A DNA stretch of 37,073 nucleotides, from assembly GCA_035763845.1 (NCBI GenBank), contig DASUAK010000036.1:1-37073 (forward strand), in the 5' to 3' direction. The position numbers and the translations under genes are program-made. The notes beneath the pieces were generated by a model. That model saw only the letters and a list, made by a program, of their open reading frames with translations, was not told the DNA's origin and did no database searches. Source of the stretch: a bacterium. GTDB lineage: Bacteria; Sysuimicrobiota; Sysuimicrobiia; Sysuimicrobiales; Kaftiobacteriaceae. Each line of letters opens with the position of its first letter. Positions within the stretch are counted from its first letter, which is position 1. Positions 3,394 to 32,442 of the stretch are shown piece after piece.

Positions 3394-4169
3394 GCGCCCC
3401 CCGCGTCATCGTCACGCGCCCGGAGGGACAGAACGGCGAGCTGGCCGCCGGCCTGCGTGCGATCGGTTGGGAGGCGGTGGAGGTGCCGGCGATCGGCATC
3501 GAGCCGCCCGAGTCCTACGACGCGCTCGACCGTGCGCTCGCCGGCCTTGACCGATTCGATTGGGTGCTGCTGACGAGCCGGAATGCCGTCGCGGCGATGT
3601 TCGATCGGCTCGCCGTCGTTGCCCCGGGAGTCTCGATGCCGCGACTTCGCTTCGCTGCGATCGGCCCCGGCACGGCGGAGGCGCTGGGCGCCCGCGGCGT
3701 CGCGCCGGTGTGGATCCCCTCGCGCTACCTCAGCGAAGCCGTCGCCGGCGAGCTGCCTGCGACCGCGGGGCAGCGCGTGCTCCGCCTGCGCGCGGAGGTC
3801 GCCTCGGATGCCCCGGCCGTGGAGCTGCCCCGGCGCGGGGTGGAGGTCGTGGAGGCCGTCGCCTACCGTACCGTCGAGGGCCCCGCCGCTTCGCGCGAGC
3901 GACTGCGCCGGGCGGTGGAGCAGGGCGTGGAGGCGGTGATCTTCACGAGCGCCTCGACCGTCCGCGGGCTGGTCCGTCTGGCCGGCGAAAGCGGGTGCGC
4001 GGAGGCGCTGCGTTCGCTGCTGCTCGTGGCCATCGGCCCGGTCACGGCCCGGGCGCTCGAGGAGGCGGGGCTGCGGGCCGGCCTCGTCGCCGCCGTGCAC
4101 ACGATCGAGGGCATCGTCGCTTCGCTGGCCGAGAGGAGGAACGTCCGTGCTGGCTTCCCGAGTCGGTAG
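3390..4169 (+). CDS. hemD: uroporphyrinogen-III synthase
   Basis: Taken from the in-frame GTG at 3390, which forms a GTGA overlap with the hemC stop. [19 protein letters not shown]... is HemD-like (VTRP start, duplicated flavodoxin-like halves, AIGPxTA repeated). The 384-aa ORF-track version (from 3015) is an Arg/Gly-rich extension overlapping hemC. Confidence 0.8.
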
Positions 4170-5142
4170 TCCGCCGCGGTCACGCCCCCGGCGCCTGCGC
4201 CGGACGCAGACGCTGCGCGGCCTGGCGCGCGAGACGCGCCTGCATCCCGAGATGTTCATCTATCCTCTGTTCGTGCGTCCCGGACGCGGCGTGCGGGAGC
4301 CCATCCCGTCGATGCCCGGACAATCGCGCGTGTCCGTGGACGAGCTGTCGCGCGAGGCCGACGACCTGGGCGGGCTGGGCATCCCGGCCGTGCTGCTCTT
4401 CGGACTGCCGGAGGCCAAGGATCCCGAAGGCACCGGGGCGTACGACGACGACGGCATCGTCCAGCGCGCCGCGCGCGCCCTGGCGCGCAGCCACCCCGAG
4501 CTGCTTGTTATCGCCGACGTCTGCCTGTGCGAGTACACCTCGCACGGCCACTGCGGTGTCCTCGACGGGGGGCAGGTGGACAACGACGCGACGCTGGAGC
4601 TGCTGGCGCGGACGGCCGTCTCCCAGGCCGCCTCGGGCGCCGGGATCGTGGCGCCCAGCGCGATGATGGACGGGCAGGTGGCCGCGATCCGCGCGTCGCT
4701 GGACGAGGCCGGCTTCGCGTCGACCGCGGTCATGGGCTATTCGGCGAAGTTCGCCTCCGCCTTCTACGGGCCGTTCCGGGACGCGGCCGGGTCCGCCCCG
4801 CAGTTCGGGGACCGGCGCGGCTACCAGATGGATCCGCCCAACGCGCGCGAGGCGCTGCGCGAGATCGCCCTCGACCTGGCCGAGGGAGCCGACGCCGTGA
4901 TGGTCAAGCCCGCGCTGGCCTATCTGGACATCATCCGCGCGGCGCGGCCGGACGTGCCGGTGCCGCTCGCGGCCTACAACGTCAGCGGCGAGTACGCGAT
5001 GGTCAAGGCCGCCTCGGCGGCGGGCTGGCTGGACGAGCGCGCCGCGGTGCTCGAGATCCTCACCGCGCTGCACCGCGCGGGAGCGGACCTGCTCATCACC
5101 TATCATGCGAAGGAGGCCGCGGGATGGCTGACGGCGCGGTGA
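4147..5142 (+). CDS. hemB: porphobilinogen synthase (delta-aminolevulinate dehydratase), Zn-type
   Basis: 331 aa. Motifs RPRRLR...FIYPLFV, the Cys-rich metal site [14 protein letters not shown], and the Schiff-base lysine context VMVKPA. Confidence 0.95.
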
Positions 5143-5810
5143 GCGAGCAGTCGGTGCTGCAGATCCTGGCGCTGCGCATCGACCCCGTGTGGCGGCGCCT
5201 GGGCGCGGAGGAGCGCGCCGTCGACCGCGACGCCTTCGCCCGGGCGATCCGGCAGACGGGCGCCGTCACGACGCTCGTCTATTCGACGGTCGGGCTGCGC
5301 GCGGACGCCGATCTCGTCCTGGTGCGCACGGCCGCCGCCCTGGACGATCTGGAGGAGAACGCCGCCCGGCTGCTGCGCAGCGGGATGGGGCGGTTCGCCT
5401 CGGCCTCCCACGCCTTCACCGGCCTCATCCGCTCGTCCCGGTACGTGAAGAAGCCGGGGGCGCAGGAGCAGGCGCTGATCAGCGGCGAGCGCGCCCGCTA
5501 CCTGATCGTCTATCCGTTCACCAAGACCACGGAGTGGTATCTGCTGGGGCGCGAAGCCCGGCAGGGGATGATGAACGAGCATATCCGGATCGGCCACGAC
5601 TTTCCCCAGGTGCGCCAGCTCCTGGCCTACTCCACCGGTCTGGACGACCAGGAGTTCATCGTGGCCTATGAGACCGACGATCTCCCCGCGTTTCAGGACC
5701 TGGTCACGGCGCTGCGCGAGACCGACGCGCGGCCGTACACGCTGCGGGACCAGCCCATCCTCACCGCCATCTACCGACCGCTCGATGAAGCGCTGGATCT
5801 GCTGGGGTGA
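5124..5810 (+). CDS. hemQ: coproheme decarboxylase (HemQ/ChdC, chlorite-dismutase-like family)
   Basis: Internal ATG at 5124 in the 4527..5810 frame. [17 protein letters not shown]...[16 protein letters not shown]...[10 protein letters not shown] matches the HemQ/Cld-like fold pattern. About 228 aa. Sits inside the haem operon with hemH and hemY. The exact start is uncertain (a GTG at 5139 is also possible). Confidence 0.85.
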
Positions 5811-6943
5811 CGCGAGGTGACGCGATGCAGACGATGAGACCCACGGTGGCCGCCGGCGGCGGATACCGCTTCGACCGGGCGCCGCGCATGATCTATTGGG
5901 AGATGACGCGGGCCTGCGCCCTGGCCTGCCGGCACTGCCGCGCCGAGGCGATCCCGCTGCGCGATCCGCTCGAGCTGCGCACGGACGAGGCGCTGCGCAT
6001 GCTGGCGCAGCTGCGCGCGTTCGGCGATCCGGTGCCGCACCTGGTGTGCACCGGCGGAGATCCGCTGCAGCGGCCGGACCTCCTCGAGATCGTGCGGGAG
6101 GGCACGCGGATCGGGCTCCCTGTCTCGCTCGCGCCCAGCGCGACCGCGAACCTCACGCGCGAGATCATTGAGGCGCTGCGGGACGCCGGGATGCAGAGCA
6201 TGTCCCTGAGCGTCGACGGCTCCACCGCCGCGCGCCACGATGACTTCCGCGGCGTCGAGGGGACGTACGACACGACGATCCAGGCCGCGCGGTGGGCCCG
6301 CGAGGCGGGGGTCCCCCTGCAGCTCAACACCCTCGTCACCGGCGATTCGATCGAGGACCTCCCGGCCATGTACCATCTGGCCCGGACGCTGGACATCATG
6401 CGTTGGAGCCTGTTCTTTCTCGTGGCGGTTGGAAGGGGAACCACTCTTCCGGAGCTCATGCCGCTCGAGGCAGAGAGTGTCATGCAGTGGCTGGCGGAGC
6501 GCTCGATGGAGGCGCCGTTCGCCATCGCAGCCACGGAGGCCCCACACTTTCGCCGGGTTGCCATTGGGCTGATGCACGACCGCCGGATGGCCGGCGGGGC
6601 CATCCGGCGAACGCCCATCGGCCGCGGCTTCGGCATCCGCGACGGCAACGGCGTGATGTTCATCTCGCACCGCGGGGAGGTCACCCCGGCGGGGTTCCTC
6701 GGCGTCGTCACCGGCAGCGTGCGCGAGCGGTCACCGGTGGAGCTGTACCGGACGCACGAGGTCTTCGTCGCGCTGCGCGATCCGGCGCGCCTGCGGGGCA
6801 AGTGCGGCCGCTGCGAGTTCCGGGAGCTGTGCGGCGGCTCGCGGGCGCGCGCCTTCGCGCGGACCGGAGACTACCTCGAGAGCGATCCGCTCTGCGCCTA
6901 CGAGCCGGGGGGACAGACGCCGGCGGTGGAGCTGCAGGCATGA
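5807..6943 (+). CDS. radical SAM/SPASM-domain protein, AhbD/NirJ-like (function in haem metabolism inferred)
   Basis: CALACRHC (CxxxCxxC) radical SAM cluster motif in YWEMTRACALACRHC. GGDPLQRPD motif and RWSLFFLVAVGRG. C-terminal SPASM-type Cys cluster CGRCEFRELCGGSRARAF...DPLCAY. Alternative start at ATG 5825, preceded by GAGGTGA. Confidence 0.8.
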   Translation: MTRGDAMQTMRPTVAAGGGYRFDRAPRMIYWEMTRACALACRHCRAEAIPLRDPLELRTDEALRMLAQLRAFGDPVPHLVCTGGDPLQRPDLLEIVREGTRIGLPVSLAPSATANLTREIIEALRDAGMQSMSLSVDGSTAARHDDFRGVEGTYDTTIQAARWAREAGVPLQLNTLVTGDSIEDLPAMYHLARTLDIMRWSLFFLVAVGRGTTLPELMPLEAESVMQWLAERSMEAPFAIAATEAPHFRRVAIGLMHDRRMAGGAIRRTPIGRGFGIRDGNGVMFISHRGEVTPAGFLGVVTGSVRERSPVELYRTHEVFVALRDPARLRGKCGRCEFRELCGGSRARAFARTGDYLESDPLCAYEPGGQTPAVELQA

Positions 6944-7974
6944 GTCGCTTCCTGCGGGCCTGCCGCCGCGAGCCGGTCGACCGGACACCGGTATGGTTCA
7001 TGCGCCAGGCCGGACGCTCTCAGCCCGAGTATCGCGCGCTGCGCGAGCGTTACACGCTGCTCGAGATCTGCGCCCGCAGCGATCTCGTGGCGGAGGTTAC
7101 CCTGCGTCCGGTCGAGCAGCTCGGCGTGGACGCGGCCATCCTCTTCGCCGACATCACGGTCCCGCTGCTGGGGATGGGGGTGGCGTTCGAGCTGCACGAC
7201 GGGACCGGCCCGCGCATCCACCGCCCCGTGCGGGCGCAGGCAGACGTCGCCGCCCTGCGGCCGTTCGAGCCCGAGGCCACGATCGACGCACTGCTCGGCG
7301 GGGTCGCTCTGGTCCGCCGCGCGAGCCCCGTGCCCCTGATCGGCTTCGCGGGCGCGCCGTTCACCCTGGGGAGCTATCTCATCGAAGGCGGACCGTCGCG
7401 GGAGTTCCTCCAGACGAAGGCGATGATGCGGGGATCCCCGGCGCTGTGGCAGGCGCTGATGGAGCGCCTCACCGAGGCGACCATCGCGTATCTCAGCAGG
7501 CAGGTCGCCGCGGGCGTGCAGGCCGTCCAGCTGTTCGACAGCTGGGTAGGGTGCCTGAGTCCGGCCGATTACCGCGCGTCGGTCGCGCCGTATATGCGCC
7601 GTATCTTCGCCTCGCTGCGTCCCCTGGGCGTGCCGGCCATCCACTTCGGCACCGGCACCGCGGGGCTGCTGCGGGAGATGGCGGAGGCGGGGGGGGATGT
7701 CATCGGCGTGGACTGGCGCGTCGGCCTGGCCGAGGCCTGGGCGCAGATCGGCGACCGCGCCATCCAGGGCAATCTCGATCCGTCGGCGCTCCTGGGGCCC
7801 TCCGGCGTCGTACGCTCGCAGGCCGCCGCCGTCCTGGCGCAGGCCGCGGGACGCGCGGGCCACATCTTCAACCTCGGCCACGGGGTTCTCCCCGACACGC
7901 CGCAAGACCACCTGCACGGGCTCGTCGAGTTCGTGCACAACTACCGGCACGAGGCCGCGGAGGTGCGGGCGTGA
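6940..7974 (+). CDS. hemE: uroporphyrinogen decarboxylase
   Basis: ATG at 6940 forms an ATGA overlap with the upstream stop. MSRFLRACRREPVDRTPVWFMRQAGRSQPEYR is the canonical HemE N-terminus. The ORF-track start at 6292 is a spurious extension. Confidence 0.95.
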   Translation: MSRFLRACRREPVDRTPVWFMRQAGRSQPEYRALRERYTLLEICARSDLVAEVTLRPVEQLGVDAAILFADITVPLLGMGVAFELHDGTGPRIHRPVRAQADVAALRPFEPEATIDALLGGVALVRRASPVPLIGFAGAPFTLGSYLIEGGPSREFLQTKAMMRGSPALWQALMERLTEATIAYLSRQVAAGVQAVQLFDSWVGCLSPADYRASVAPYMRRIFASLRPLGVPAIHFGTGTAGLLREMAEAGGDVIGVDWRVGLAEAWAQIGDRAIQGNLDPSALLGPSGVVRSQAAAVLAQAAGRAGHIFNLGHGVLPDTPQDHLHGLVEFVHNYRHEAAEVRA

Positions 7975-8921
7975 CCGGACGCGGCGTGCTGCTCACCGCC
8001 TACGGCAGTCCGGCCACGCTGGACGACGTCGGATCCTACTTCACCCACATCCGCGGCGGGCGCGCTCCCTCGGCGGAGCAGGTCGAGGAGCTGCGGGAGC
8101 GGTACCGCCGCATCGGGGGCACCTCGCCGCTGCGGGCGGTCACCGCGGCGCAGGCGGACGGCCTCCGCCGCGAGCTGGCCCGGCGCGGGATGGCCCTTCC
8201 CGTCTACGTCGGGATGAAGCACGCGAGTCCATTCATCGCCGACGCGGTCGCCGCGATGGCCCGGGACGGCGTGCGCGAGGGCGTCGTGCTGGCGCTGGCC
8301 CCCCACTACTCGCGGATGAGCATCGCCTCCTACTTCTCGACCGCCGCGGAGGCGGCGTCCGCGCACGGCATCCGGCTGCGCGCGATCGAGTCCTGGCACG
8401 ATCACCCGGGGTTCATCGCCGCGCTGGCGGCGCGGGTGCGGGACGCCCTGGCTCGCTTCGCCGATCCGTCCGCCGTCGAGGTGATCTTCACCGCCCACAG
8501 CCTGCCGGAGCGCATCCTGACCTGGAACGATCCCTATCCCGCTCAGCTGCGTGTCACCGCGGAGCTCGCCGCGCGCGCGGCGAGTGCCGGAACGTGGCGG
8601 TTCGCCTACCAGAGCGCATCGCACACCGGCGAGAAGTGGCTCGGCCCCGATCTGCTCGAGGCGCTGCGCGAGATCGCGCGCTCCGGGCGCCGCGATCTCG
8701 TCGTCTGTCCCATCGGCTTCGTCGCCGACCATCTGGAGGTGCTCTTCGACATCGAGGTCGAGGCCAAGGAGACGGCCTCGGAGCTGGGCCTCCGCCTCGA
8801 GCGCGCCCCGTCCCTGAACGACGGGCCGGACTTCATCGCCGCGCTCGCCGATATCGTGGCCTCGGCGGCGCAGACGGCCGCCGAGCCGCGCGCCGGCGCC
8901 CGCGCGGAGGGACGGTCGTGA
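7971..8921 (+). CDS. hemH: ferrochelatase (coproporphyrin ferrochelatase type, HemH/CpfC)
   Basis: GTG at 7971 forms a GTGA overlap with hemE. GVLLTAYGSPATLDDVGSYFTHIRGG..., FTAHSLPERI and GFVADHLEVLFDIE are ferrochelatase motifs. About 316 aa. Confidence 0.9.
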   Translation: MTGRGVLLTAYGSPATLDDVGSYFTHIRGGRAPSAEQVEELRERYRRIGGTSPLRAVTAAQADGLRRELARRGMALPVYVGMKHASPFIADAVAAMARDGVREGVVLALAPHYSRMSIASYFSTAAEAASAHGIRLRAIESWHDHPGFIAALAARVRDALARFADPSAVEVIFTAHSLPERILTWNDPYPAQLRVTAELAARAASAGTWRFAYQSASHTGEKWLGPDLLEALREIARSGRRDLVVCPIGFVADHLEVLFDIEVEAKETASELGLRLERAPSLNDGPDFIAALADIVASAAQTAAEPRAGARAEGRS

Positions 8922-10375
8922 CCGCCCCCCGCCGGCCCAGCATCGTCGTGATCGGGGCAGGCATCACCGGCCTGACCGCCTCGCGCGTCCTGCGCGAGGC
9001 GCTGGTGCACGGCGGCGCGGGCGAGGTGACGCTGATCGAAGCCGCTCCGCAGCTGGGGGGCAAGATCCTCACCGAGCGGGTCGGCGGCTTCCTGATCGAG
9101 GGGGGTCCGGACTCCTTCCTGACGCTGAAACCGCAGGCGGTGGAGCTGGCGCGCGAGCTGGGCCTCGGTGACCGCCTGGTCGGCACGCTCGACCCGCGGC
9201 ACGTCTTCATCCTGCACCGGGGGCGCCTGCACCCGCTGCCGGAGGGGCTGGCTTCGCTGATCCCGCAGCGCCTCGGCCCCTTCATCCGCAGCCGCCTGTT
9301 CACGCCGTGGGAGAAGGCCCGCTTCGGGTTGGACCTGCTCATCCCGCCGTCGCCCAACGGCACCGACGAGGCGCTCGGAAGCTTCGTGAGGCGGCGGCTC
9401 GGTCAGGCCGCGGTGGAGCGGCTGGCCGGTCCGCTCCTGGCGGGGATCCACGCCGGCGACATCGAGGAGCTGAGCCTGCGCGCGACCTTTCCTGCCCTTG
9501 CCGAGGCCGAGCGCCGCTACGGGAGCCTGACGCGCGCCGTGCTCGCCCGCCGCCGCGCGCCGGCCCGTTCGGGCGGCCGGATCGGAGCAGAGGGGGCATC
9601 GCCGGGCGGGTCGATGTTCATGACGCTGCGGGGCGGTCTCCGGGAGCTGGTGGACCGCGCCGCCGACCTGCCCGGCGTCGCCGTGCGGACGCAGACTGAC
9701 GTTCGGACGATCGAGCGCCGCGGTGAGCGATATCTGGTGCGCGTCGAGGGCGCGGAGGCCATCGAGGCGGACGTGGTCGTGGTCACGGTGCCGGCCAACG
9801 CCGCCGCGGTGGTGCTGCGCGATCTCAATCCGCCCGCCGCGGATCTGGCGGCCACGGTGCCGCACGTCTCCACAGCCGCTGTCGCCTTCGGATTCCGCCG
9901 CGCCGACGTGCGCCATCCGCTTGCCGGCCACGGTTACGTGGTGGGGTCAGGCGAGGGGATGGCGCACACCGCGGCCACGTGGGTCAGCTCGAAGTGGCCC
10001 GACCGCGCCCCCGAGGGCTACGTGCTGCTGCGCTGCTTCACGGGACGGGCCGGAGAGCAGCAGGCCCTGGCGCTGGACGACGGCGCGCTGGCCGAAGCCC
10101 TGCTGGCCGAGGTGACCCCGCTGCTCGGCATCACGGGCGCTCCCGAGCTCACCCGCGTCTATCGCTGGAACGCCGCGATGCCGCAGTATACGCTCGGCCA
10201 TCTCGAGCGCGTCGCGGCGCTGCGCCGGGCCCTCGAAGCGACGCCCGGGATCATCGTCGCCGGAGGGGGGTACGGCGGCGTGGGCCTCCCCGACTGCATC
10301 CGGCAGGGCAGGGAAGCGGCGGCCGAGGCGCTGCGGCTTGCATCCCCGCCCGCGCTGGAGGCGGTGGAGCGATGA
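8918..10375 (+). CDS. hemY: HemY-type FAD oxidase (coproporphyrinogen/protoporphyrinogen oxidase, CgoX)
   Basis: GTG at 8918 forms a GTGA overlap with hemH. IVVIGAGITGLTA is the FAD dinucleotide motif. About 485 aa, and the C-terminal GGYGGVGLPDCIRQG is typical of HemY. Confidence 0.9.
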   Translation: MTAPRRPSIVVIGAGITGLTASRVLREALVHGGAGEVTLIEAAPQLGGKILTERVGGFLIEGGPDSFLTLKPQAVELARELGLGDRLVGTLDPRHVFILHRGRLHPLPEGLASLIPQRLGPFIRSRLFTPWEKARFGLDLLIPPSPNGTDEALGSFVRRRLGQAAVERLAGPLLAGIHAGDIEELSLRATFPALAEAERRYGSLTRAVLARRRAPARSGGRIGAEGASPGGSMFMTLRGGLRELVDRAADLPGVAVRTQTDVRTIERRGERYLVRVEGAEAIEADVVVVTVPANAAAVVLRDLNPPAADLAATVPHVSTAAVAFGFRRADVRHPLAGHGYVVGSGEGMAHTAATWVSSKWPDRAPEGYVLLRCFTGRAGEQQALALDDGALAEALLAEVTPLLGITGAPELTRVYRWNAAMPQYTLGHLERVAALRRALEATPGIIVAGGGYGGVGLPDCIRQGREAAAEALRLASPPALEAVER

Positions 10376-20093: not shown

Positions 20094-21013
20094 AAGAACC
20101 CATAGTGCTTGGTATGTTGGGTCCCACCCGCCCGCTGTTCGCCCTGCTGGTGACCGGGTCACTGTTCGCTGCCGCGTGCCAGCCGACGGTCAACATCTCC
20201 CGCGCCACGGCGCGCGTCGCATCACCCGGACCGGCGCCGGCCGAGGAGCGCCTGGTGCCGGTGCGCCCCTCCGCGATCGAGGGACGGCGCGTCTTCCAGC
20301 GGGCGCAGTGCGTGGTCTGCCACGGGCCGGAGGGCCTGGGCAACGGCCCGGCCGCGGCGAACCTGAAGTCCCCCGGCAAGAATCTGATGACCGACTTCTT
20401 CCGCCTGCTCGGGATCCGCCTCCGGGGTGAGCAGCTGCCCAGCCGTCCCGCGAACTTCCACAACACGGTGGCGATGCGGCTGAACAGCCCGTTCAGCATG
20501 TACGAGACGGTGACGCGCGGCCGGCCGCACACCGCGATGCCCGCCTTCCCGCCGCGGGGCGGCAAGCCCGCGTACGGCGCGAGCTCCTTCGGCGTGAACC
20601 TCACGGACGCGGAGCGGTGGCACGTTATCTTCCACGAGTGGACCTACCAGAGCACGCCGGCGGAGATCCGGACCGGCCGGCGGCTCTACGAGACGAAGCG
20701 GATCGCCGTGGAGGGCACGGCGCTGACCTGCGCCTCCTGCCACGGGACGGCGGGCGATGGGCGCGGGCCGCGCGGGGCGGAGCTCTCCCGCGAGCTGTGG
20801 CACTGGGCGCGCGGGCAGGGCCCCGGTATCTTCACCGACATCAACCTGATGGCGCAGCGCAAGCCCACCGAGCTGTACCAGGCCATCATCGACGGCCGCG
20901 GGCGGATGCCGGCCTACCGCGGCAAGCTCACCGAAGAGGAGCTGTGGGCGCTGGTCAACTACCTCTACACCTTCGTCTACGACTACCCGTGGGAGGAGGG
21001 GGCCGGGCGGTGA
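20090..21013 (+). CDS. dihaem c-type cytochrome, probable lipoprotein
   Basis: Two CxxCH motifs (CVVCHG, CASCHG), each followed by a Met-ligand context (TAMPAF, GRMPAY). Lipobox-like LFAAAC. Start is either GTG 20090 (GTGA overlap) or ATG 20114. Confidence 0.85.
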   Translation: MKEPIVLGMLGPTRPLFALLVTGSLFAAACQPTVNISRATARVASPGPAPAEERLVPVRPSAIEGRRVFQRAQCVVCHGPEGLGNGPAAANLKSPGKNLMTDFFRLLGIRLRGEQLPSRPANFHNTVAMRLNSPFSMYETVTRGRPHTAMPAFPPRGGKPAYGASSFGVNLTDAERWHVIFHEWTYQSTPAEIRTGRRLYETKRIAVEGTALTCASCHGTAGDGRGPRGAELSRELWHWARGQGPGIFTDINLMAQRKPTELYQAIIDGRGRMPAYRGKLTEEELWALVNYLYTFVYDYPWEEGAGR

Positions 21014-21063: not shown

Positions 21064-21732
21064 ATGGATGAGACCTCGTCGCCGCAGCTGAAGCGCCGCG
21101 CCTTCCTCAAGGCGGCCACGGCCGTGCCGGTTGTGGCCGCCCTGGGGGCGCTTGCGTCCCCGCTGCTGCGGCTGCTGAAGCCGAACGTGCCGAAGATGGG
21201 CGTGCTCGCCCCCACGGCGCAGGACGTGGCCCGGGGCGAGGTCACCGTGGCCGCCACCCTGGCGGACCTGCGGCAGCCCTGGGACTACAAGTACTTCGTC
21301 TTCACGCAGCGCTACCCGCAGTACACGTCCGATGGGTTCAAGACCGCCAACGTCCCCGGTGTGGCCATCCGGCTGCCGTACAAGATCCGGCTCCCCCTGG
21401 CCTGGGCGCAGACGATCGGCAAGGAGCCCAAGGTGACGGAGAGCGACATCGTCGTCTTCTCGCGCATCTGCCCGCACCTGGGCTGCATCTACAACTACGT
21501 CCCGAACTGGCGCGAGGTCAGCGCGGGCTACGGGGGCTATGTGCCGCCGCAGCAGCGCCAGCACGCCCTGCTGGCCTGCCCGTGCCACCTCAGCATCTAC
21601 GATCCCGCGGACCAGGCCCAGCCCGGCCGCGTTCTCTCCGGACCCGCGCCGCGCCCGCCCCGGACCTTCCTCTTCGAGCTCCAGGGCGAGCGGATCGTCG
21701 TCACCGACGTCGAGCCGGGCGGGATCGCCTGA
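21064..21732 (+). CDS. qcrA: Rieske [2Fe-2S] iron-sulfur protein with Tat signal
   Basis: Twin-arginine motif KRRAFLKAATAV. Cluster boxes CPHLGC and CPCHLS, including both extra disulfide cysteines. 222 aa. Confidence 0.9.
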   Translation: MDETSSPQLKRRAFLKAATAVPVVAALGALASPLLRLLKPNVPKMGVLAPTAQDVARGEVTVAATLADLRQPWDYKYFVFTQRYPQYTSDGFKTANVPGVAIRLPYKIRLPLAWAQTIGKEPKVTESDIVVFSRICPHLGCIYNYVPNWREVSAGYGGYVPPQQRQHALLACPCHLSIYDPADQAQPGRVLSGPAPRPPRTFLFELQGERIVVTDVEPGGIA

Positions 21733-21737
21733 CGCCC

Positions 21738-22877
21738 ATGTGGGACCGCCTGCGCGACTGGACCCGCGAGCGCCGCGAGAAGCTCGACCTCTTCGACGAG
21801 ACGCTGGTGGCCCGCCAGGCCAACCCGATGTTCCTGCTGGGGCCGCTGCTCTACTACTTCTGGATGATCACCGTGGTCAGCGGCGTCGTGCTGATGATCT
21901 GGTACGAGCCGACGACCACCGGGGCGTTCAGCTCCATCGACCGCATCCAGCACGAGGTGCCGCTGGGCTGGCTTATCCGCGGGCTGCACAAGTACGCCGC
22001 GGACGGCGTGATCGTGACGATCATCCTGCGGATCTACCGGATGTACTTCCTCGGGGAGTACAAGAAGCCGGGCGAGCTGTCCTGGATCCTCGGCTTCCTG
22101 GGCCTGATCCTGGCGATGATCTCCGGGATCACCGGCTACCTGCTGATCTGGAACCAGCGCGCCTTCTGGGCGGCGAAGACGGTGCTCACCGTGCCGGTGT
22201 ACTTCGACGAGATCCCCGTGCTCGGGCCGATGGGCTTCGGCTCGATGATCGCCTACATCTTCCTGGGCGGGCCGGCCGTGGGCCAGGCCACGATCACGCG
22301 CTTCTACGCCCTGCACTTCGGGATCTCACTCGTCCTGTTGATCCTGATCGAGGTCTTCTTCCAGCGCACGCGGCGCAAGCGCATCAGCATGTCGCTGCTG
22401 CCGATGATCCTCTTCCTCGTGATGCTGGTCGTGATCAGCTACGTCCTGCCCGCCGAGTCCGGCCGGCGCGCCGACCCGACGCGCACGCCGCTGCCCATCC
22501 TCTCGGACTGGTACTTCCTGGCCCTGTACCAGTACGTCAAGTACACGCCCCCGCTGTGGGCGGGCCTCGGGCCGGGGCTGCTCATCGGTTTCGGCATGCT
22601 CGTGCCGTTCCTCGATCGCAGCAAGGGCCGCCGGCCGCTGGAGCGCCCGTTCTTCTTCGTCGTCGGCGTCATGGCGCTGCTGTACTTCCTGGTCTTCACG
22701 GTGCTGATCTTGTTCAACATCGCGGTGATCGAGCGCGAGCCGTTCATCGTCATGAACCTCACGCTGCTCGTACTGGCCGCGGCCCTGGTCTGGGAGGTCC
22801 GCCACCGCCGCCGCCGGCGCGCCCTGGCCGCCCGGCCGCCCGCTCCGGCGCCGGGACGCGCCGCGGCGCACGGCTGA
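21738..22877 (+). CDS. qcrB: cytochrome b (fused b6 + subunit-IV-like, 379 aa), variant lacking both n-side haem His ligands
   Basis: ATG at 21738. WLIRGLHKYAADG (helix B), ITGYLLIWNQRAFWAAK and ITRFYALHFG (helix D) are cytochrome b/b6 signatures. PILSDWYF occupies the PEWY position. Confidence 0.9.
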   Translation: MWDRLRDWTRERREKLDLFDETLVARQANPMFLLGPLLYYFWMITVVSGVVLMIWYEPTTTGAFSSIDRIQHEVPLGWLIRGLHKYAADGVIVTIILRIYRMYFLGEYKKPGELSWILGFLGLILAMISGITGYLLIWNQRAFWAAKTVLTVPVYFDEIPVLGPMGFGSMIAYIFLGGPAVGQATITRFYALHFGISLVLLILIEVFFQRTRRKRISMSLLPMILFLVMLVVISYVLPAESGRRADPTRTPLPILSDWYFLALYQYVKYTPPLWAGLGPGLLIGFGMLVPFLDRSKGRRPLERPFFFVVGVMALLYFLVFTVLILFNIAVIEREPFIVMNLTLLVLAAALVWEVRHRRRRRALAARPPAPAPGRAAAHG

Positions 22878-23139: not shown

Positions 23140-23332
23140 CGCCTACGCGCTGGGCATCGTGCTGCTGTCAGCGCTCGCCCTGCTGTTCGCGGTGGGGATC
23201 GTCTACGGCGAGATCGGCGACCGCTGGTTCTTCGGCGGCGGCATGATCGGAGCGCTGCTGCTGGCCTACTCCTTTATCGTCCTGTTCCTGCGGAAGTTGG
23301 GGATCATCGGGCCACGGAAGGCGGAGCGATGA
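23132..23332 (+). CDS. hypothetical small membrane protein (2 TM)
   Basis: ATG at 23132 overlaps the previous ORF by 8 nt. 66 aa with two clear TM helices (ALGIVLLSALALLFAVGIVY, MIGALLLAYSFIVLFL). Its stop overlaps the next start (ATGA). Confidence 0.45.
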   Translation: MRSAYALGIVLLSALALLFAVGIVYGEIGDRWFFGGGMIGALLLAYSFIVLFLRKLGIIGPRKAER

Positions 23333-24537
23333 GTCTGACGGCGGGCGCCCCCAGGCCGGCGGAGGCACCGCGCGGGCGGTACGGCCGCGCCATGACGGCG
23401 CTGCTGCGCGGCACCCTGCGGCTGGACGTTCTCATCAACAAGCTGTATCCGACCGACTACAACCCGCTCTACTACACGGGCGGGCTGGCCAACCTCTTCC
23501 TGTTCGTGCTGGTGCTCTCCGGCATCTTCCTCTTCTTCTACTATGAAGCGAGCCTCGGCGGGGCGTTTGCCTCGGTCCGCTACATCACGGAGGGCGTGCC
23601 CTACGGGGGCATCATCCGCGGCATCCACCGCTACGCGGCGGACGGCTTCATCGTGGCGGTCCTGCTGCACCTGTTCCGCAACTGGTTCACCGACCGCTAC
23701 CTCTTCAGCCGCGACAACCCCTGGATCTCGGGGATGTTCCTGCTCGCCTTCGGCGGGTTCGTGGGCTTCACCGGCTACCAGCTCGTCTGGGACGAGCGGG
23801 CGCAGGTTCTGACCAGCCTGTTCCTCGGCATGCTGCGCAGCATCCCCTGGGCGGGCGAGGCGCTGGCCCGCGCGTTCCTCGGCGGCGGGGGGGTGGGGGA
23901 CAGCACGCTGGTGCGCGTCCTCTTCCTGCACGTCGCGCCGGCCTCGGTGCTGTACGTGCTGCTCTGGTGGCACTACACGCGCGTCCGCCATCCGAAGATC
24001 TGGCCGCCCGCGGTGTGGGTCCTGCTCTGCCTGGGCCTGGTCTTCCTGCTGGCCGGCGCGCTGCCGGCCACCAGCGGCCCGCCGGCCACCCCCGCCGGGC
24101 AGCCCGCGAGCTTCCCCATGGACGTCTTCTTCCTGCTGCCGTTCTGGCTGGTGAACTGGCTGCCCGCGGGCGCGGTCGTCTTCCTGCTCGCCGTCCTCCT
24201 CGTGCTCGGCTTCATCATCCCATACGCCGGAGCGCGCGAGCGGCCGGAGGGGATGGAGGTGCGCCACGCCGGCGTGGCCCAGGTCATCGACGGGAACTGC
24301 ACCGGCTGCGAGCTGTGCTACTTCGACTGCCCGTACAACGCCATCGTGATGGCGTCCTCGCCGGCGCCGGGGCTGTCGCGGGCCGCGGCCAACCGCACCC
24401 TGCTGGCTGTCGTCCTCGAGTCGCGCTGCGTGGAGTGCGGGATCTGCATCGGGGCCTGCCCCTTCGAGGCGCTCGAACTGCCGCGCTTCCTGGAGCGCGA
24501 CGTGAAGCAGCTCGTCGCGGAGGCGGTGGGGGCATGA
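23329..24537 (+). CDS. cytochrome b (four-His, dihaem type) fused to a C-terminal 2x[4Fe-4S] ferredoxin domain
   Basis: IIRGIHRYAADGFIVAVLLHLFRNWF has H100/H114 and VLFLHVAPASVLYVLLWWH has H201/H215, both at canonical 14-residue spacing. FTGYQLVWDERA is also cytochrome b-like. Two more TM helices follow. The C-terminal domain carries CTGCELCYFDCP and CVECGICIGACP (CxxCxxCxxxCP twice). Confidence 0.85.
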   Translation: MSLTAGAPRPAEAPRGRYGRAMTALLRGTLRLDVLINKLYPTDYNPLYYTGGLANLFLFVLVLSGIFLFFYYEASLGGAFASVRYITEGVPYGGIIRGIHRYAADGFIVAVLLHLFRNWFTDRYLFSRDNPWISGMFLLAFGGFVGFTGYQLVWDERAQVLTSLFLGMLRSIPWAGEALARAFLGGGGVGDSTLVRVLFLHVAPASVLYVLLWWHYTRVRHPKIWPPAVWVLLCLGLVFLLAGALPATSGPPATPAGQPASFPMDVFFLLPFWLVNWLPAGAVVFLLAVLLVLGFIIPYAGARERPEGMEVRHAGVAQVIDGNCTGCELCYFDCPYNAIVMASSPAPGLSRAAANRTLLAVVLESRCVECGICIGACPFEALELPRFLERDVKQLVAEAVGA

Positions 24538-24992
24538 GCGCCTTCCCGAAGGTCGTCGGATTCGTGTGCGACTGGAGCGTCGATCTGACGCCTCTGCTGG
24601 ACGGCGGAGCGCTGCGCGACGTGCCCGGCGTGCGGATCATCCGCGTGCCGTGCTCGGGGTTCATACGCCCGAGCTGGCTCGAGGACGCGCTGTCCGGCGG
24701 GGCCGACGGCGTCTTCGTCACGGGCTGCCCCTACGGAGACTGCCTGAACCGCGAAGGCAACTACCTCATGCGCGACCGGATCGACCAGCTGCAGCGCCGC
24801 CTGGTTCGCCGGCGGACGGATCCGGCCCGGCTGGGCATGCTCGCGCACGGGCTGCACGACGGGGACGCCTTCCTGGCCGAAGTGCGCGAGTTCGTCCGGC
24901 GGCTGGAGGCGCTGGCGGCCGCGCCGCCCGCCTCCGCCGGGCGCCCCGCGCGTGCGGCCAAGCCGGCTCCGGCGGAGGGAGACCCGGCGTGA
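24534..24992 (+). CDS. MvhD/FlpD-like iron-sulfur protein (methyl-viologen-reducing hydrogenase delta-subunit family)
   Basis: ATG at 24534 forms an ATGA overlap with the upstream stop. VVGFVCDWS...VRIIRVPCSGFIRPSWLEDALSGGADGVFVTGCPYGDCLNREGNYLMRDR matches the FlpD/MvhD domain pattern with its four conserved Cys. No signal peptide. Ala/Pro-rich tail. Confidence 0.75.
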   Translation: MSAFPKVVGFVCDWSVDLTPLLDGGALRDVPGVRIIRVPCSGFIRPSWLEDALSGGADGVFVTGCPYGDCLNREGNYLMRDRIDQLQRRLVRRRTDPARLGMLAHGLHDGDAFLAEVREFVRRLEALAAAPPASAGRPARAAKPAPAEGDPA

Positions 24993-25096
24993 AGCGGCTG
25001 CCCCCCAAGGTCATCGCGGCCTACGTCCTTTACTACATCCTCTGGTTCCTGCTGCTGACGTTCGTGGCCTCATTCGGTTTGATCGCCGAGACCTGA
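24989..25096 (+). CDS. possible 35-aa single-TM peptide
   Basis: GTG at 24989 forms a GTGA overlap with the upstream stop. VKRLPPKVIAAYVLYYILWFLLLTFVASFGLIAET is a basic N-terminus plus one TM helix. Supported only by coupling and hydrophobicity. Confidence 0.3.
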   Translation: MKRLPPKVIAAYVLYYILWFLLLTFVASFGLIAET

Positions 25097-25133: not shown

Positions 25134-25532
25134 ATGCGTCATCGTGTGGTCCTGGCAGGACTGCTCCTGTTCGCTGCGGGCCTGGCGGTCGCCTGCGGGC
25201 CCGGGGGCGGCGGGGGGCAGGGCGGCGGCGAAGGACAGCCGGGCGGCGGCGGGACCGGCGGAGCCGGCGGGACGGTGAACGTCACGGAGAGCGAGTGGGC
25301 GATCCGCATTCCGGCCGACGTGCCCTCCGGTAAGGTCACCTTCACCGTCAAGAACGACGGGGCCGTGGAGCACAACTTCGTCATCCAGGAGACCAGCCAG
25401 CGCCTGGACGGGATCCAGCCCGGACAGACGAAGACCATCCAGGCCACGCTGCAGCCGGGTACGTATACCGTCGTGTGCGACATCCCCGGGCACAGCGAGG
25501 CCGGGATGACGACCACGATGACCGTCAAGTAA
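25134..25532 (+). CDS. type-1 copper cupredoxin (plastocyanin/auracyanin-like), probable lipoprotein with Gly-rich tether
   Basis: GGAGGAGGG SD upstream. Signal plus LAVAC lipobox-like site, then GPGGGGGQGGGEGQPGGGGTGGAGG as a linker. T1-Cu ligand pattern H (VEHNF) ... C-x2-PGH-x3-GM (VVCDIPGHSEAGM). Confidence 0.85.
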   Translation: MRHRVVLAGLLLFAAGLAVACGPGGGGGQGGGEGQPGGGGTGGAGGTVNVTESEWAIRIPADVPSGKVTFTVKNDGAVEHNFVIQETSQRLDGIQPGQTKTIQATLQPGTYTVVCDIPGHSEAGMTTTMTVK

Positions 25533-26579: not shown

Positions 26580-27554
26580 GTGCCCGCTCCGGTCGCCGTC
26601 ACGGGGGCAGGAGGCTTCGTCGGGAGCCGCCTCGTCCGACGTCTGCGCGGCGCGGGCACGGCGGTGCGGGCCGTCATCCGCGCCGCCCGGGATGCGGAGC
26701 CGCTGCGGGCCCTCGGCTGCGAGGTGGCCGTGGCGGACGTGACGGACCGGGCCGCTCTCGCCGCGGCCTTCTCCGGATGCCGGGCGGCCGTGCACCTCGC
26801 GGCCATCATCAGGGAGCGGGACGGGCTCACTTTCGACGCCGTCAACCATCAAGGAGCGGCGAACGCCGCGGCGGCCGCGGCCGCCTCCGGCATCGGGCGG
26901 TTCGTCCATCTGAGCGCGCTCAGGGCCTCGCCCGAGGCGGCGCGCTACCTCCGCTCCAAGTGGCAGGGTGAGGAGGCGGTGCGGCGCAGCGGCCTGCCGG
27001 CCGTGATCTTCCGGCCGTCCGTCCTCCTCGGTCCCGGGGGCGGGGCCGCGGCGCAGTTCGCGGACGTCGTGCGGTACGGGCTCTGGTATCCGGTGGTGGG
27101 CGGGCGTGTGCCGGGGCGCCGCCTGGCCGGAACGCTGGCCGCGCTCACGCCGTTCGTGCCGGTGCTCGGAGACGGGCGGTACACCTCGATGCCGGTTGCC
27201 CTCGACGACGTCCTGCCCGCCGTCGCGGCCGCCCTCGAGCGTGACGACGTGCTGGGCGGTACCTTCGAGATCGGGGGGCCGGAGGTCCTGACCTACGACG
27301 AGCTGGTCAGGCGGGTGGCGGCGGTGCTGGGGCTGCGGCGCGTCCTGTGGCACCTGCCCATGCCCGCGGCCCGGGGGCTGCTGCGCCTCTTCGCGCTGCT
27401 GCCCGACCCGCCGATCACCCGGGACGAGTTCGACGCGCTGCTCGTCGACAACGTGTGCGATCCAGCTCCGGCCGTCCGCGCTTTCGGGCTCCGGCTACGG
27501 CCGGTCGAGCAGGCGCTGCGCGAGGCGCTCACCCCGTCCGGGGAGAAAACGTAG
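26580..27554 (+). CDS. SDR-family NAD(P)-binding protein (atypical epimerase/NmrA/NDUFA9-like)
   Basis: GTG at 26580. VAVTGAGGFVGSRLVRRL is a Rossmann GxxGxxG motif. About 324 aa. The ORF-track start at 26205 overlaps the previous gene and is rejected. Confidence 0.75.
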   Translation: MPAPVAVTGAGGFVGSRLVRRLRGAGTAVRAVIRAARDAEPLRALGCEVAVADVTDRAALAAAFSGCRAAVHLAAIIRERDGLTFDAVNHQGAANAAAAAAASGIGRFVHLSALRASPEAARYLRSKWQGEEAVRRSGLPAVIFRPSVLLGPGGGAAAQFADVVRYGLWYPVVGGRVPGRRLAGTLAALTPFVPVLGDGRYTSMPVALDDVLPAVAAALERDDVLGGTFEIGGPEVLTYDELVRRVAAVLGLRRVLWHLPMPAARGLLRLFALLPDPPITRDEFDALLVDNVCDPAPAVRAFGLRLRPVEQALREALTPSGEKT

Positions 27555-31617: not shown

Positions 31618-32442
31618 GTGAGCGAGCTCCTCCTCGGGCGGCGGCGCATCGCGGTCTTCCTCGTGCTCGTGCTGTTCACGCTGGTCCTCCTGAGCAGCCA
31701 GTCCCGGTCCGCCGATCGGCGCAACGTCGGCATCATCGGACAGGCGATCCTGACCATCCTGCTGCCGGTGCAGGCGGGGATGGTGCGGATCGCGGACGGC
31801 ATCTCCGGCATGTGGGAGCGCTTCACCGAGATCGGCCGGCTGCGCGTGGAGAACGCGCGCCTCCGGGCGCAGGTGGAGGCGCTGAACCGCGAGGTGGCGC
31901 GCCTGCGCGAGCAGGCCACCGCGGCGCAGCGGCTGGAGCGGCTGCTCGATCTGCGCGCCCAGGTCAGCTACAACGGCCTGGCCGGGCGGGTGATCGGCCG
32001 CGACCCGAGCCGCTGGTTCAGCACGGTCGTCATCGACCGGGGCAGCCGCGACGGCGTGACCCGCAACGCGCCGGTCGTCACGCCCGAGGGCGTGGTGGGC
32101 CGGGTGATCGAAGTGACGCCGTTCGCCTCGCGCGTGCTGCTGATCGTGGACGCCCGCAGCGCGGTCGGCGTGCTGGTGCAGCGGTCGCGGGACGCGGCGG
32201 TCGTGGAAGGGCAGGGCACGGACCGCCTCCATCTCCTGTATCTCTCGCGCGCGGCGCAGGTGGAGGCCGAGGATCTGCTGGTCACCTCCGGGCTGGGCGG
32301 CGTCTTCCCGCGCGGCCTGGTGGTCGGCCGGATCATGTCGGTCAAGCGGGAGGAGGGAGCGCTGCTGCAGGAAGCCGAGGTGGAACCGGCGGCGCAGCTG
32401 GGCCGGCTGGAGGAAGTGCTGATCCTCCTGCCGCGGCAGTGA
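31618..32442 (+). CDS. mreC: rod-shape-determining protein MreC
   Basis: 274 aa. N-terminal TM helix, coiled coil (ENARLRAQVEALNREVARLRE), and a beta-rich C-terminus with VVTPEGVVGRV and TSGLGGVFPRGLVVG. Confidence 0.85.
   Translation: MSELLLGRRRIAVFLVLVLFTLVLLSSQSRSADRRNVGIIGQAILTILLPVQAGMVRIADGISGMWERFTEIGRLRVENARLRAQVEALNREVARLREQATAAQRLERLLDLRAQVSYNGLAGRVIGRDPSRWFSTVVIDRGSRDGVTRNAPVVTPEGVVGRVIEVTPFASRVLLIVDARSAVGVLVQRSRDAAVVEGQGTDRLHLLYLSRAAQVEAEDLLVTSGLGGVFPRGLVVGRIMSVKREEGALLQEAEVEPAAQLGRLEEVLILLPRQ

Follow-up and report, generated by a model that had tools for sequence, protein, structure and literature searches.

The window analysed here is a stretch of 37,073 nucleotides from a bacterium of the uncultured candidate phylum CSP1-3/Sysuimicrobiota (contig DASUAK010000036.1, assembly GCA_035763845.1). 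It encodes a 152-residue protein of the FlpD/MvhD type within an operon for a Rieske/cytochrome b complex, directly after a gene in which cytochrome b is fused to a ferredoxin domain (cyt b–Fd). We consider it highly probable that FlpD is the terminal iron–sulfur (Fe–S) subunit of the cyt b–Fd membrane protein and that it acts outside the Mvh/Hdr system. The best explanation overall, which we regard as probable although with some reserve, is that FlpD caps a cytoplasmic Fe–S arm on the di-haem cytochrome b paralogue of a heterodimeric complex III. These interpretations rest on domain identities, ligands, conserved gene order, gene fusions, predicted membrane topology and the loss of haem bH ligands, and from them we infer the cluster type, the heterodimer, the electron path, its direction and the partner.

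Identity and fold of FlpD

The FlpD reading frame runs on the forward strand from an ATG at 24534 to a TGA at 24990–24992. The motifs FVCDW, IRVPCSG and GADGVFVTGCPYGDCLNREGNY and the four cysteines at positions 12, 40, 65 and 70, all of which had been quoted in the preliminary description, are present in the translation. The family assignment made there is borne out by a profile comparison, in which PF02662 (FlpD) matches residues 7–127 over profile positions 1–122 of 123 with 94.1 bits (E=8.3e-27) against a Pfam cut-off of 22.3 bits, far beyond chance. The closest relative of solved structure is MvhD (5odc_D, E=6.6e-20), and the MvhD chains of the Mvh–Hdr, Elp–Hdr and Fdh–Hdr complexes match FlpD with E values from 6.6e-20 to 1e-13. 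An AlphaFold2 (AF2) model built on 16 homologues has a β-α-β fold, with a predicted local distance difference test (pLDDT) value of 77 and a predicted template-modelling (pTM) score of 0.71. Superposition of this model with 5odh_D, 5odc_D, 8rvu_F and 7bkb_F by Foldseek gives template-modelling (TM) scores of 0.66–0.78 (E 1e-10 to 6e-8), and no fold other than that of the MvhD chains was found near it.

Cys12, Cys40, Cys65 and Cys70 are invariant in all 16 close orthologues, which are 60–79% identical to the window protein, and the motif GCPYGDCxNREGN is likewise invariant across this alignment. The same four columns hold cysteine in 66 of 66 members of the clade of FlpD domains linked to cytochrome b and in 100% of other MvhD-type domains. 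The fifth canonical cysteine, the second of the CxxC pair, is Ala, Ser or Gly in 64 of the 66 cytochrome b-linked proteins, as opposed to Cys in 84 of 94 other MvhD-type domains. The four retained cysteines are likely to bind a [2Fe–2S] cluster.

In a neighbour-joining tree of 160 FlpD domains, which carries no bootstrap support and was computed from sequences pre-selected by profile, all 66 cytochrome b-linked domains, whether encoded separately (split) or in one polypeptide with cytochrome b (fused), form a single clade with zero intruders. Also inside this clade are P0263, P0275, P0291, P0274 and about nine similar proteins of 250–300 residues, in which a long, acidic region of low complexity precedes a C-terminal FlpD domain and in which there is no cytochrome b or ferredoxin domain.

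The cytochrome b–ferredoxin fusion

The translational coupling of FlpD to the cyt b–Fd gene, as proposed in the preliminary description, is real: the FlpD start codon overlaps the stop codon of the 402-residue frame (23329–24537) in the sequence ATGA. Pfam places Cytochrome_B on residues 37–220 of the fusion and Fer4 families on residues 311–385, and two CxxCxxCxxxCP motifs follow the cytochrome b N-terminal domain; the top match in the Protein Data Bank (PDB) is cytochrome b6 (E=3e-27). His100, His114, His201 and His215, together with eight cysteines at 324–377, are invariant in 28 split and fused homologues. The transmembrane helices in the AF2 model comprise residues 46–70, 93–121, 129–153, 191–218, 228–244 and 280–300. 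The membrane part is modelled with pLDDT values of 80–95, the ferredoxin domain at a low confidence of about 55.

Hydropathy and the AF2 model both indicate six transmembrane helices, which places the ferredoxin domain on the N-terminal side of the fusion. Cytochrome b proteins have their N-terminus on the n-side (cytoplasmic) face of the membrane, where haem bH sits. The ferredoxin domain should therefore be cytoplasmic and next to haem bH. A periplasmic arm of ferredoxin and FlpD was rejected on account of the six predicted helices and of the FlpD sequence, which carries neither a signal peptide nor a Tat motif. A haem ci of the kind found in cytochrome b6f was also rejected, the fusion having Tyr at the Cys35 position. 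Helices G and H of cytochrome b are missing from the fusion; the 86-residue or the 66-residue membrane protein encoded upstream of it might supply them in trans. In the Qo-type motif the Sysuimicrobiota orthologues read xDVF, with an invariant Asp and with Val in the place of Trp, and a second lineage (L150, described below) and the fused forms have xDWF instead.

The ferredoxin domain of the window fusion matches residues 569–640 of the NCBIfam model for HdrA2 and FlpD separately matches residues 646–773. In the fused relatives the ferredoxin–FlpD cassette is collinear with HdrA2 residues 572–770 as a single stretch (114.7 bits); these residues are the C-terminal ferredoxin and MvhD domains of HdrA2. 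The module looks like a bc-type cytochrome b that acquired the C-terminal ferredoxin–MvhD cassette of an HdrA2-like protein, with cytochrome b replacing the flavin domain. There is no curated NCBIfam model for the fusion or its FlpD clade, the best matches being partial ones to HdrA2, cytochrome b6 and ExtP below their cut-offs.

Relatives in which FlpD is part of one polypeptide

A profile search with the FlpD alignment against 1.84 billion cluster representatives showed that the near relatives include proteins of about 690 residues which contain cytochrome b, the 2×[4Fe–4S] domain and FlpD in one polypeptide. A search with one such fused protein gave 630 clusters at E<=1e-20, and of the 120 that were listed nearly all combine PF00033, Fer4 and PF02662; these listed clusters come from metagenome-assembled genomes (MAGs) with the labels Deltaproteobacteria, Nitrospirota and Nitrospinota. 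The fused form was also found in at least 595 metagenome stretches. Across 19 diverse fusions the four haem histidines, the eight Fe–S cysteines and the Asp-Trp of the ef loop are invariant or nearly so, and the four FlpD cysteines are conserved, the fourth being nearly invariant (it is missing in P0495). The window fusion is 35% identical to P0268 over 388 residues and 31% identical to P0342 over 375 residues. That the three domains occur elsewhere as one polypeptide is strong evidence that the separate cyt b–Fd and FlpD proteins of the window form one physical unit.

The neighbours of the fused form were clustered in 88 loci (L060–L147). The typical gene order is COX2-like, COX1, haem O synthase (UbiA family) and/or SCO1/SenC, followed by the fusion, with haem O synthase and/or SCO1/SenC directly before the fusion in 74 of the 88 loci. 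Other neighbours include hemerythrin (25 loci), cytochrome cd1 nitrite reductase (20), CtaA (13) and Crp/Fnr regulators (10), and no Rieske gene cluster was found among the neighbours in these loci. The surroundings resemble the norSY-senC-orf1 (sNOR) clusters of ammonia oxidisers.

One alternative suggested by these surroundings is that the module serves to mature haem or copper enzymes or to process their cofactors, for example in an oxygen-independent modification of haem O. The position of the fused form right after haem O synthase and/or SCO1/SenC, the fact that CtaA haem A synthase is near it in no more than 13 loci, and the presence in the window of upstream genes for haem biosynthesis and for the maturation of cytochrome c, are all consistent with it. 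However, this is an argument from gene neighbourhood alone, and the sequence gives no sign of a haem-substrate site. The window gene, moreover, has structural complex III genes on either side, to which its translation is coupled, and a Qo-type Asp, two haems and a three-cluster Fe–S chain look like an electron-transfer enzyme. We therefore consider a maturation role very unlikely.

Further features were noted in the fused form. In five loci (L063, L064, L072, L073 and L075) a gene for a NuoF-like flavoprotein lies between two paralogous fusions; in L063 (12102–13403) it encodes Complex1_51K, SLBB and NADH_4Fe-4S domains in about 435 residues. A rhodanese gene is found next to this group of genes. 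The flavoprotein could be an NAD(H)-linked partner with which the FlpD end of the arm interacts. Past FlpD, the fused forms have one more transmembrane helix and then a conserved domain of about 150 residues (approximately 520–695 in P0268) with no Pfam match, which in shorter fused forms is a separate downstream gene (e.g. L060 11596–12255). From its position after the extra helix this domain should be periplasmic, and it appears to be β-rich. At the corresponding position the window has only a 35-residue helix and a cupredoxin.

Conservation of the operon

The window has a G+C content of 72%, and every gene identified in it is on the forward strand. Haem biosynthesis genes are followed by ccmB, ccmC and ccmF and then by genes for a di-haem cytochrome c, a Rieske protein, a full-length cytochrome b, the 86-residue and 66-residue proteins, the cyt b–Fd fusion, FlpD, the 35-residue protein, a cupredoxin and a polyprenyl synthase. 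A pattern scan of one genome per species yielded 53 loci. Those that are named belong to the CSP1-3/Sysuimicrobiota (Ca. Sysuimicrobium, Fervidifonticultor, Calidihabitans and Thermofontivivens), and others are titled 'Armatimonadetes bacterium RBG_19FT_COMBO_69_19' or 'Bacillati bacterium ANGP1'. As judged by tblastn with the window proteins, the genes from Rieske to FlpD occur in the same order in every one of the 53 loci that is long enough; the 35-residue gene and the cupredoxin come next in many, and the polyprenyl synthase wherever the contig extends. Gene calls show the same order in four contigs from other sources.

It also recurs in L150, which represents a distinct lineage with 61% G+C, although the proteins share only 35% (Rieske), 45% (cytochrome b), 37% (cyt b–Fd) and 40% (FlpD) identity with those of the window. 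Retention of the order at such low identity indicates that the arrangement is old and under selection. Directly after the L150 operon, and at this single locus, lies a two-subunit 2-oxoacid:ferredoxin oxidoreductase (OFOR; 7131–9833), a hint that the soluble partner may be ferredoxin.

No HdrA, hydrogenase or flavoprotein lies in the window according to the preliminary description, and none was found in Pfam scans of the window reading frames of more than 150 residues that were tested (3015–4169, 4527–5810 and 31618–32442 are among those left unscanned). Nor were HdrA, hydrogenase or formate dehydrogenase found in the flanks of the 53 loci as probed with the window's own proteins. The 'new partner context' which that description offered as an explanation holds to the extent that the partner can be named as the cyt b–Fd fusion, from the phylum-wide gene order and the one-polypeptide form. 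The combination of domains, on the other hand, is not new, having been listed in 2014 (PMC4122944). The other explanation offered there, a docking adaptor for a soluble bifurcating enzyme, is conceivable: the scarcity of mvhA in the phylum speaks against Mvh as that enzyme, and the NuoF-like gene between two fusions in five loci speaks for some partner.

FlpD could, alternatively, be an ordinary MvhD for an Mvh hydrogenase and HdrABC encoded elsewhere, its position in this operon being incidental. Its clear family membership and MvhD fold, as well as the group 3c hydrogenase in some Sysuimicrobiota, would fit such a role. But the position of the gene is fixed in 53 genome loci, the protein is fused to cyt b–Fd in hundreds of others, and it belongs to a separate clade without the fifth canonical cysteine. 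Furthermore, mvhA is present in six of about 45 Sysuimicrobiota MAGs, whereas the FlpD operon is present in every genome locus examined, and Mvh is therefore not an obligate partner. Given the conserved gene order, the fused relatives, the separate clade and the scarcity of mvhA, the canonical MvhD of the Mvh/Hdr complex was ruled out as an identity for the window protein; we strongly disfavour an ordinary MvhD role and believe that there is hardly any chance of it.

Full-length cytochrome b and the loss of the haem bH ligands

The operon contains the parts of a bc1/b6f-type complex: a Rieske protein with CxHxGC and CxCH motifs, a cytochrome b with the Qo motif SDWY, a di-haem cytochrome c and a cupredoxin. 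The Rieske gene is three genes upstream of the FlpD-bearing module. Its product shows the motifs CPHLGC and CPCH but is divergent, scoring 20.3 bits in Pfam, exactly the cut-off, and E=1.7e-12 with NCBIfam Rieske_proteo; wherever a genome locus extends this far, an orthologue with 49–86% identity is found in this position. A published KEGG-based table for the phylum has no entry at all for a Rieske subunit, so that these genomes may have been taken to have an incomplete complex III.

The haem ligands of the full-length cytochrome b were assessed by aligning the window protein and 45 orthologues (from 44 Sysuimicrobiota loci and L150) with cytochrome b6. The positions of the bL ligands, His86 and His187 of b6, are His in 46 of 46 sequences. 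Of the bH ligands, the position of His100 is Arg in 46 of 46 and that of His202 is Phe, Leu, Tyr, Met or Arg, again in 46 of 46. Just two histidines lie within the transmembrane helices of this protein, and the full set of four haem histidines is found in its ferredoxin-fused paralogue instead. The Qo-bearing cytochrome b thus departs from the four-His rule of Rieske/cytochrome b complexes. With both bH ligands missing, it is predicted to be a mono-haem (bL-only) protein, in which electrons would find no way to a Qi site within the same subunit.

In the gene table that supplements the Sysuimicrobiota paper, about 45 MAGs have, with a single exception, exactly two cytochrome b genes (K00412) each. 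No other complex III genes are entered there; the table also gives complex I (complete, including NuoEFG), complex II, and cbb3 oxidases together with one to three of the aa3 type. Since there are exactly two cytochrome b genes per genome, the window operon is the sole complex III of the CSP1-3/Sysuimicrobiota and its two paralogues are the entire cytochrome b complement. A heterodimer of the full-length cytochrome b and the fusion would offer the simplest exit for the Qo-site electron that has no bH to go to. Cross-dimer transfer between bL haems has been demonstrated in engineered bc1.

In a different arrangement, the fusion and FlpD would combine with the small membrane proteins into a homodimeric enzyme of their own, a quinol dehydrogenase or quinone reductase with a cytoplasmic Fe–S head and an anchor resembling NarI, HdrE or QmoC, and would merely share a transcript with the complex III genes. 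The fused form is autonomous, being found in haem-copper oxidase/SenC/haem O synthase operons and Rieske-free in 88 loci, and Kao & Hunte likewise report that the Rieske gene is missing from the cluster (PMC4122944). The fusion has also retained the Qo-type Asp and both haems. An independent enzyme would, however, leave the full-length cytochrome b with bL alone and its second electron without an exit, even though these genomes, which have several cytochrome c oxidases, contain no cytochrome b besides it and the fusion. The pairing of a bH-less cytochrome b with the fusion recurs in two lineages that are just 35–45% identical, and the stop codon of one gene overlaps the start codon of the next along the chain. 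In our view such a separate enzyme is improbable.

Proposed electron path and its direction

In the explanation that we prefer, FlpD would be the outermost piece of an n-side arm, with the 2×[4Fe–4S] domain first and the [2Fe–2S] cluster after it, mounted on a six-helix di-haem cytochrome b paralogue that would be co-translated with the Rieske protein, the di-haem cytochrome c and the bH-less, Qo-bearing cytochrome b. The bH-less protein and the fusion would assemble as a heterodimer, in which the sole complete transmembrane haem path would run from bL of cytochrome b to bL' and bH' of the fusion. From bH' the path would continue through the two [4Fe–4S] clusters to the [2Fe–2S] cluster of FlpD. 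By way of the arm, the b haems and quinone of the complex would be in redox contact with a partner in the cytoplasm. By analogy with HdrA2/MvhD, it is likely to be a one-electron relay between the 2×[4Fe–4S] domain and an outside partner.

Several points weigh against this explanation. All of it is drawn from sequence, gene context and single-chain models and, for the remainder of the genome, from a published gene table, and the assignment of four of the five canonical cysteines as cluster ligands is unproven. The clade of cytochrome b-linked FlpD domains comes from the pre-selected, unbootstrapped tree and the ferredoxin domain from the low-confidence part of the model, as noted above. The Qo-type motif of the fusion has Val at a position where Trp is 96% conserved among cytochromes b generally. 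The basis for the heterodimer is solely the complementarity of the haem ligands and the linkage of the genes. As the fused form occurs without a Rieske gene, the module can work alone and may do so in the window too. Finally, the sequence is silent on the direction of electron flow.

As to that direction, we tentatively favour inflow, without giving it better than even chances. A low-potential donor, either ferredoxin or a docked dehydrogenase, would pass electrons to FlpD, and these would continue through the ferredoxin domain and haem bH' to a quinone site on the n-side. This direction is preferred because it has the same polarity as the homologous chain from MvhD through the ferredoxin domain of HdrA to FAD. 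Ferredoxin-type clusters typically lie well below the b haems in potential, so that inflow would be downhill. It is supported by the NuoF-like gene between fusions in five loci and by the OFOR beside the L150 operon. A sister cytochrome b is fused to ferredoxin plus a flavin reductase (PMC4122944).

Outflow is the opposite possibility. Here the low-potential Qo electron would pass from bL to bH' of the fusion, through the 2×[4Fe–4S] domain to FlpD and on to ferredoxin, to NAD(P)+ via a flavoprotein or to a disulfide; the other would pass through the Rieske protein to cytochrome c or cupredoxin and to the oxidase. The result would be a quinone-based bifurcation for reverse electron transport, of the kind proposed for the NAD(P)H-producing Rieske/cytochrome b complexes of anammox bacteria. 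Loss of bH in the Qo-bearing subunit takes away the normal sink of the second electron, as this scheme would have it, and a NuoF-like or flavin-reductase partner could equally well serve as an NAD(P)+ reductase. The carriers, too, come mostly from groups rich in chemolithoautotrophs, with sulfide or H2 autotrophy in the Sysuimicrobiota (PMC11604079) and with Nitrospirota and Nitrospinota for the fused form, and there is a close conceptual precedent in the NAD(P) reductase arms with Fe–S chains on the n-side of the Kuenenia Rieske/cytochrome b complexes (PMC12954380).

Against outflow stand, in the first place, its polarity, which is opposite to that of the homologous MvhD–HdrA chain, and the complete complex I of these genomes, which includes NuoEFG and can already run in reverse. 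Passage through haem bH is normally an energy trap. In systems that use menaquinol and a low-potential Rieske protein, not much driving force is left for moving an electron against the membrane field and up to the potential of ferredoxin or NAD. The Qo motif of the main cytochrome b is of the DWY type (SDWY), and the PDWY motif has been linked to menaquinol and low-potential Rieske proteins by Kao & Hunte (PMC4122944). Taken together, these considerations make outflow doubtful.

Comparison with known systems

The nearest described relatives are the cytochromes b of the PDWF-FeS clade (Kao & Hunte, 2014; PMC4122944), which have a 4Fe-4S domain and an MvhD domain and were listed there without further study and with no adjoining Rieske gene reported; the same authors comment that a whole cytochrome b, including the Qo motif, can belong to other complexes. 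The window proteins share with this clade the same three domains in the same order, a cytochrome b part of 31–37% identity, the invariant four His, eight Fe–S Cys and Asp of the Qo-type motif, and FlpD domains that fall in one clade. They differ in that FlpD is a separate, translationally coupled gene, in that the motif is xDVF rather than xDWF, in the missing C-terminal extension of a transmembrane helix and a β-rich domain, and in genomic location, which is a Rieske/cytochrome b/cytochrome c operon rather than the haem-copper oxidase operons of the fused form. The window protein is therefore related to the PDWF-FeS clade, yet two of the three descriptors of the clade, the PDWF motif and the absence of a Rieske gene, do not apply to it. 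One fused protein also appears in the domain table of a paper on denitrification in Chloroflexi (PMC8756737).

MvhD and the C-terminus of HdrA2 (5ODC, 7BKB and 8RVU) share with FlpD a homologous fold (TM 0.66–0.78), 30–36% identity and the four cysteine positions, and HdrA2 has the 2×[4Fe–4S] domain directly before the MvhD domain, as does the fused form. The window module, in contrast, has no HdrA flavin domain, HdrBC or hydrogenase, and a di-haem cytochrome b stands where those systems have the flavoprotein; the complex is membrane-bound, and the second Cys of CxxC is Ala, Ser or Gly. In QmoABC, QmoC is a NarI/HdrE-like di-haem cytochrome b fused to an HdrC-like 2×[4Fe–4S] domain and QmoB ends in an MvhD-like domain. 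QmoABC and HdrED, so described, resemble the window module in leading from a di-haem cytochrome b through 2×[4Fe–4S] to an MvhD-type cluster, from the quinone pool to the cytoplasm. This is analogy and not membership, as the window cytochrome b is of the bc1/b6f family (PF00033) with a Qo-type motif and has no HdrA-like flavoproteins alongside.

Among Rieske/cytochrome b complexes, those of the anammox bacterium Kuenenia (kuste4569-74 and kustd1480-85; PMC12954380) likewise have a low-potential haem chain extended by cytoplasmic Fe–S clusters. Their arms end in an FAD/NAD(P) site on separate subunits of a homodimeric complex with a normal four-His cytochrome b, whereas the window arm ends in an MvhD-type cluster without flavin and is fused to a second cytochrome b paralogue, the main one being without bH. 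A natural loss of bH ligation in a Rieske-associated cytochrome b is also known from Pyrobaculum (PMC4122944), but there the second ligand alone is lost and no compensating di-haem paralogue with an Fe–S arm has been described.

Novelty and significance

Within the literature searched, outside which most subscription-journal papers lay, there was no functional or structural study of an MvhD/FlpD protein with a Rieske protein or cytochrome b, and the description of the Sysuimicrobiota makes no mention of this complex. As far as these searches reach, the split form in a Rieske/cytochrome b/cytochrome c operon, its status as the phylum-wide sole complex III and its pairing with a bH-less cytochrome b are new. 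The cytochrome b survey of 2014 discarded every sequence without any of the four His (PMC4122944) and would consequently have missed the bH-less protein.

The module is significant in that a complex III carries an Fe–S arm borrowed from the HdrA2/MvhD electron-bifurcating system. Complex III is among the best understood of bioenergetic machines, and its four His ligands and homodimeric Q cycle are treated as invariant. The sole complex III of a widespread phylum of soils, the subsurface and hot springs breaks both rules at the level of sequence. It would be going further, and we regard this as rather unlikely, to suppose that the CSP1-3/Sysuimicrobiota and at least one other lineage have a natural heterodimeric complex III which is hard-wired to the cytoplasm and which couples the oxidation of quinol by oxygen to the reduction of ferredoxin or NAD(P)+, as a quinone-based bifurcation in the service of autotrophy, or, in reverse, lets ferredoxin feed the Q cycle. 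Should the heterodimer and its wire to the cytoplasm exist, the complex would be a natural test case of cross-dimer bL–bL transfer, shown so far, to our knowledge, in engineered enzymes only. It would also be the second independent case, after the unproven anammox proposal, of a Rieske/cytochrome b complex exchanging electrons with soluble cytoplasmic carriers, and a candidate route between the ferredoxin/NAD(P)H and quinone pools in chemolithoautotrophs. In the inflow direction it would amount to a built-in version of the long-debated route from ferredoxin to b6f in cyclic electron flow. The fused relatives extend the subject to hundreds of clusters (Nitrospirota, Nitrospinota, 'Deltaproteobacteria' and others) next to genes for NO or O2 reductases. 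They occur in cultured Magnetospirillum and Turneriella, and the module is therefore open to experiment.

Other features of the window

The features of the operon are collected in Table 1. Its junctions are tight from cytochrome b to the 35-residue gene: TGAcGTG, an 8-nt overlap between the 86-residue and 66-residue genes, ATGA between the latter and the fusion, ATGA again before FlpD, and GTGA. Ribosome-binding sites of the GGAGG type precede FlpD, the 35-residue gene and the cupredoxin. A scan of the 19–28 kb region for promoters and terminators found no promoter-like sites and two terminator-like sites, both inside coding sequence and at chance level, and is uninformative in DNA of this G+C content.

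Table 1
Features of the FlpD-bearing operon (positions in the window)
Feature	Position	Strand	Length (residues)	Basis
Di-haem c-type cytochrome, probable lipoprotein	20114..21013	+	299	Pfam Cytochrome_CBB3/Cytochrom_C (two stretches), two CxxCH, AAAC lipobox
Divergent Rieske [2Fe-2S] protein, Tat signal	21064..21732	+	222	Pfam Rieske and TAT_signal, NCBIfam Rieske_proteo
Full-length cytochrome b, Qo motif SDWY, bL ligands kept, both bH ligands lost	21738..22877	+	379	Pfam Cytochrome_B and Cytochrom_B_C, alignment to cytochrome b6
Protein with two predicted transmembrane helices	22879..23139	+	86	Hydropathy; GTG start one base past cytochrome b stop
Protein with two predicted transmembrane helices	23132..23332	+	66	Hydropathy; tblastn in most related loci
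Cytochrome b paralogue (helices A–F, four haem His) with cytoplasmic 2×[4Fe-4S] ferredoxin domain, Qo-type motif MDVF	23329..24537	+	402	Pfam, PDB match, AF2
FlpD/MvhD-type protein, predicted [2Fe-2S], cytoplasmic	24534..24992	+	152	Family, fold, invariant Cys, ATGA coupling
Single-helix membrane protein	24989..25096	+	35	Hydropathy; GTG start overlaps FlpD stop (GTGA)
Cupredoxin lipoprotein	25134..25532	+	132	Pfam Cupredoxin_1, SoxE, Copper-bind; lipobox-like AVACG

The di-haem cytochrome c, which starts with ATG, is syntenic in related loci and is the high-potential acceptor of the complex. The cupredoxin is a probable periplasmic electron carrier. It is present in many but not all of the related operons, for example in L002 and L005–L020, and was undetected in others such as L021 and L033–L036. 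The 86-residue protein has no Pfam or NCBIfam match, and the 66-residue protein likewise belongs to no known family. With tblastn, the gene for the former was detected in the corresponding place in L150 and in most of the related loci. The L150 counterparts of the 86-residue and 66-residue genes encode 91 and 62 residues, with similarity detected for the first alone. The 35-residue gene is called in L001, L002 and L005 and has tblastn matches in many loci; its L150 counterpart has 49 residues and ends in FGLIAEA.

The only nucleotide-binding protein encoded in the vicinity is an NmrA/epimerase-type NAD(P)-binding protein (approximately 26600–27554), after the polyprenyl synthase and two genes past the cupredoxin. 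It has no flavin or Fe–S motifs, and L002 has a counterpart of its gene at the same position. At the other end of the region, 5807–6943 and 6993–8921 are part of the haem biosynthesis cluster. This cluster includes a 642-residue frame in which a ferrochelatase domain covers residues 330–624 alone, the N-terminal 330 residues being either unexplained or the result of a wrong start. It also encodes a radical SAM/SPASM protein of the TIGR04053 family (444.6 bits against a cut-off of 395), which is related to the haem b synthase AhbD.

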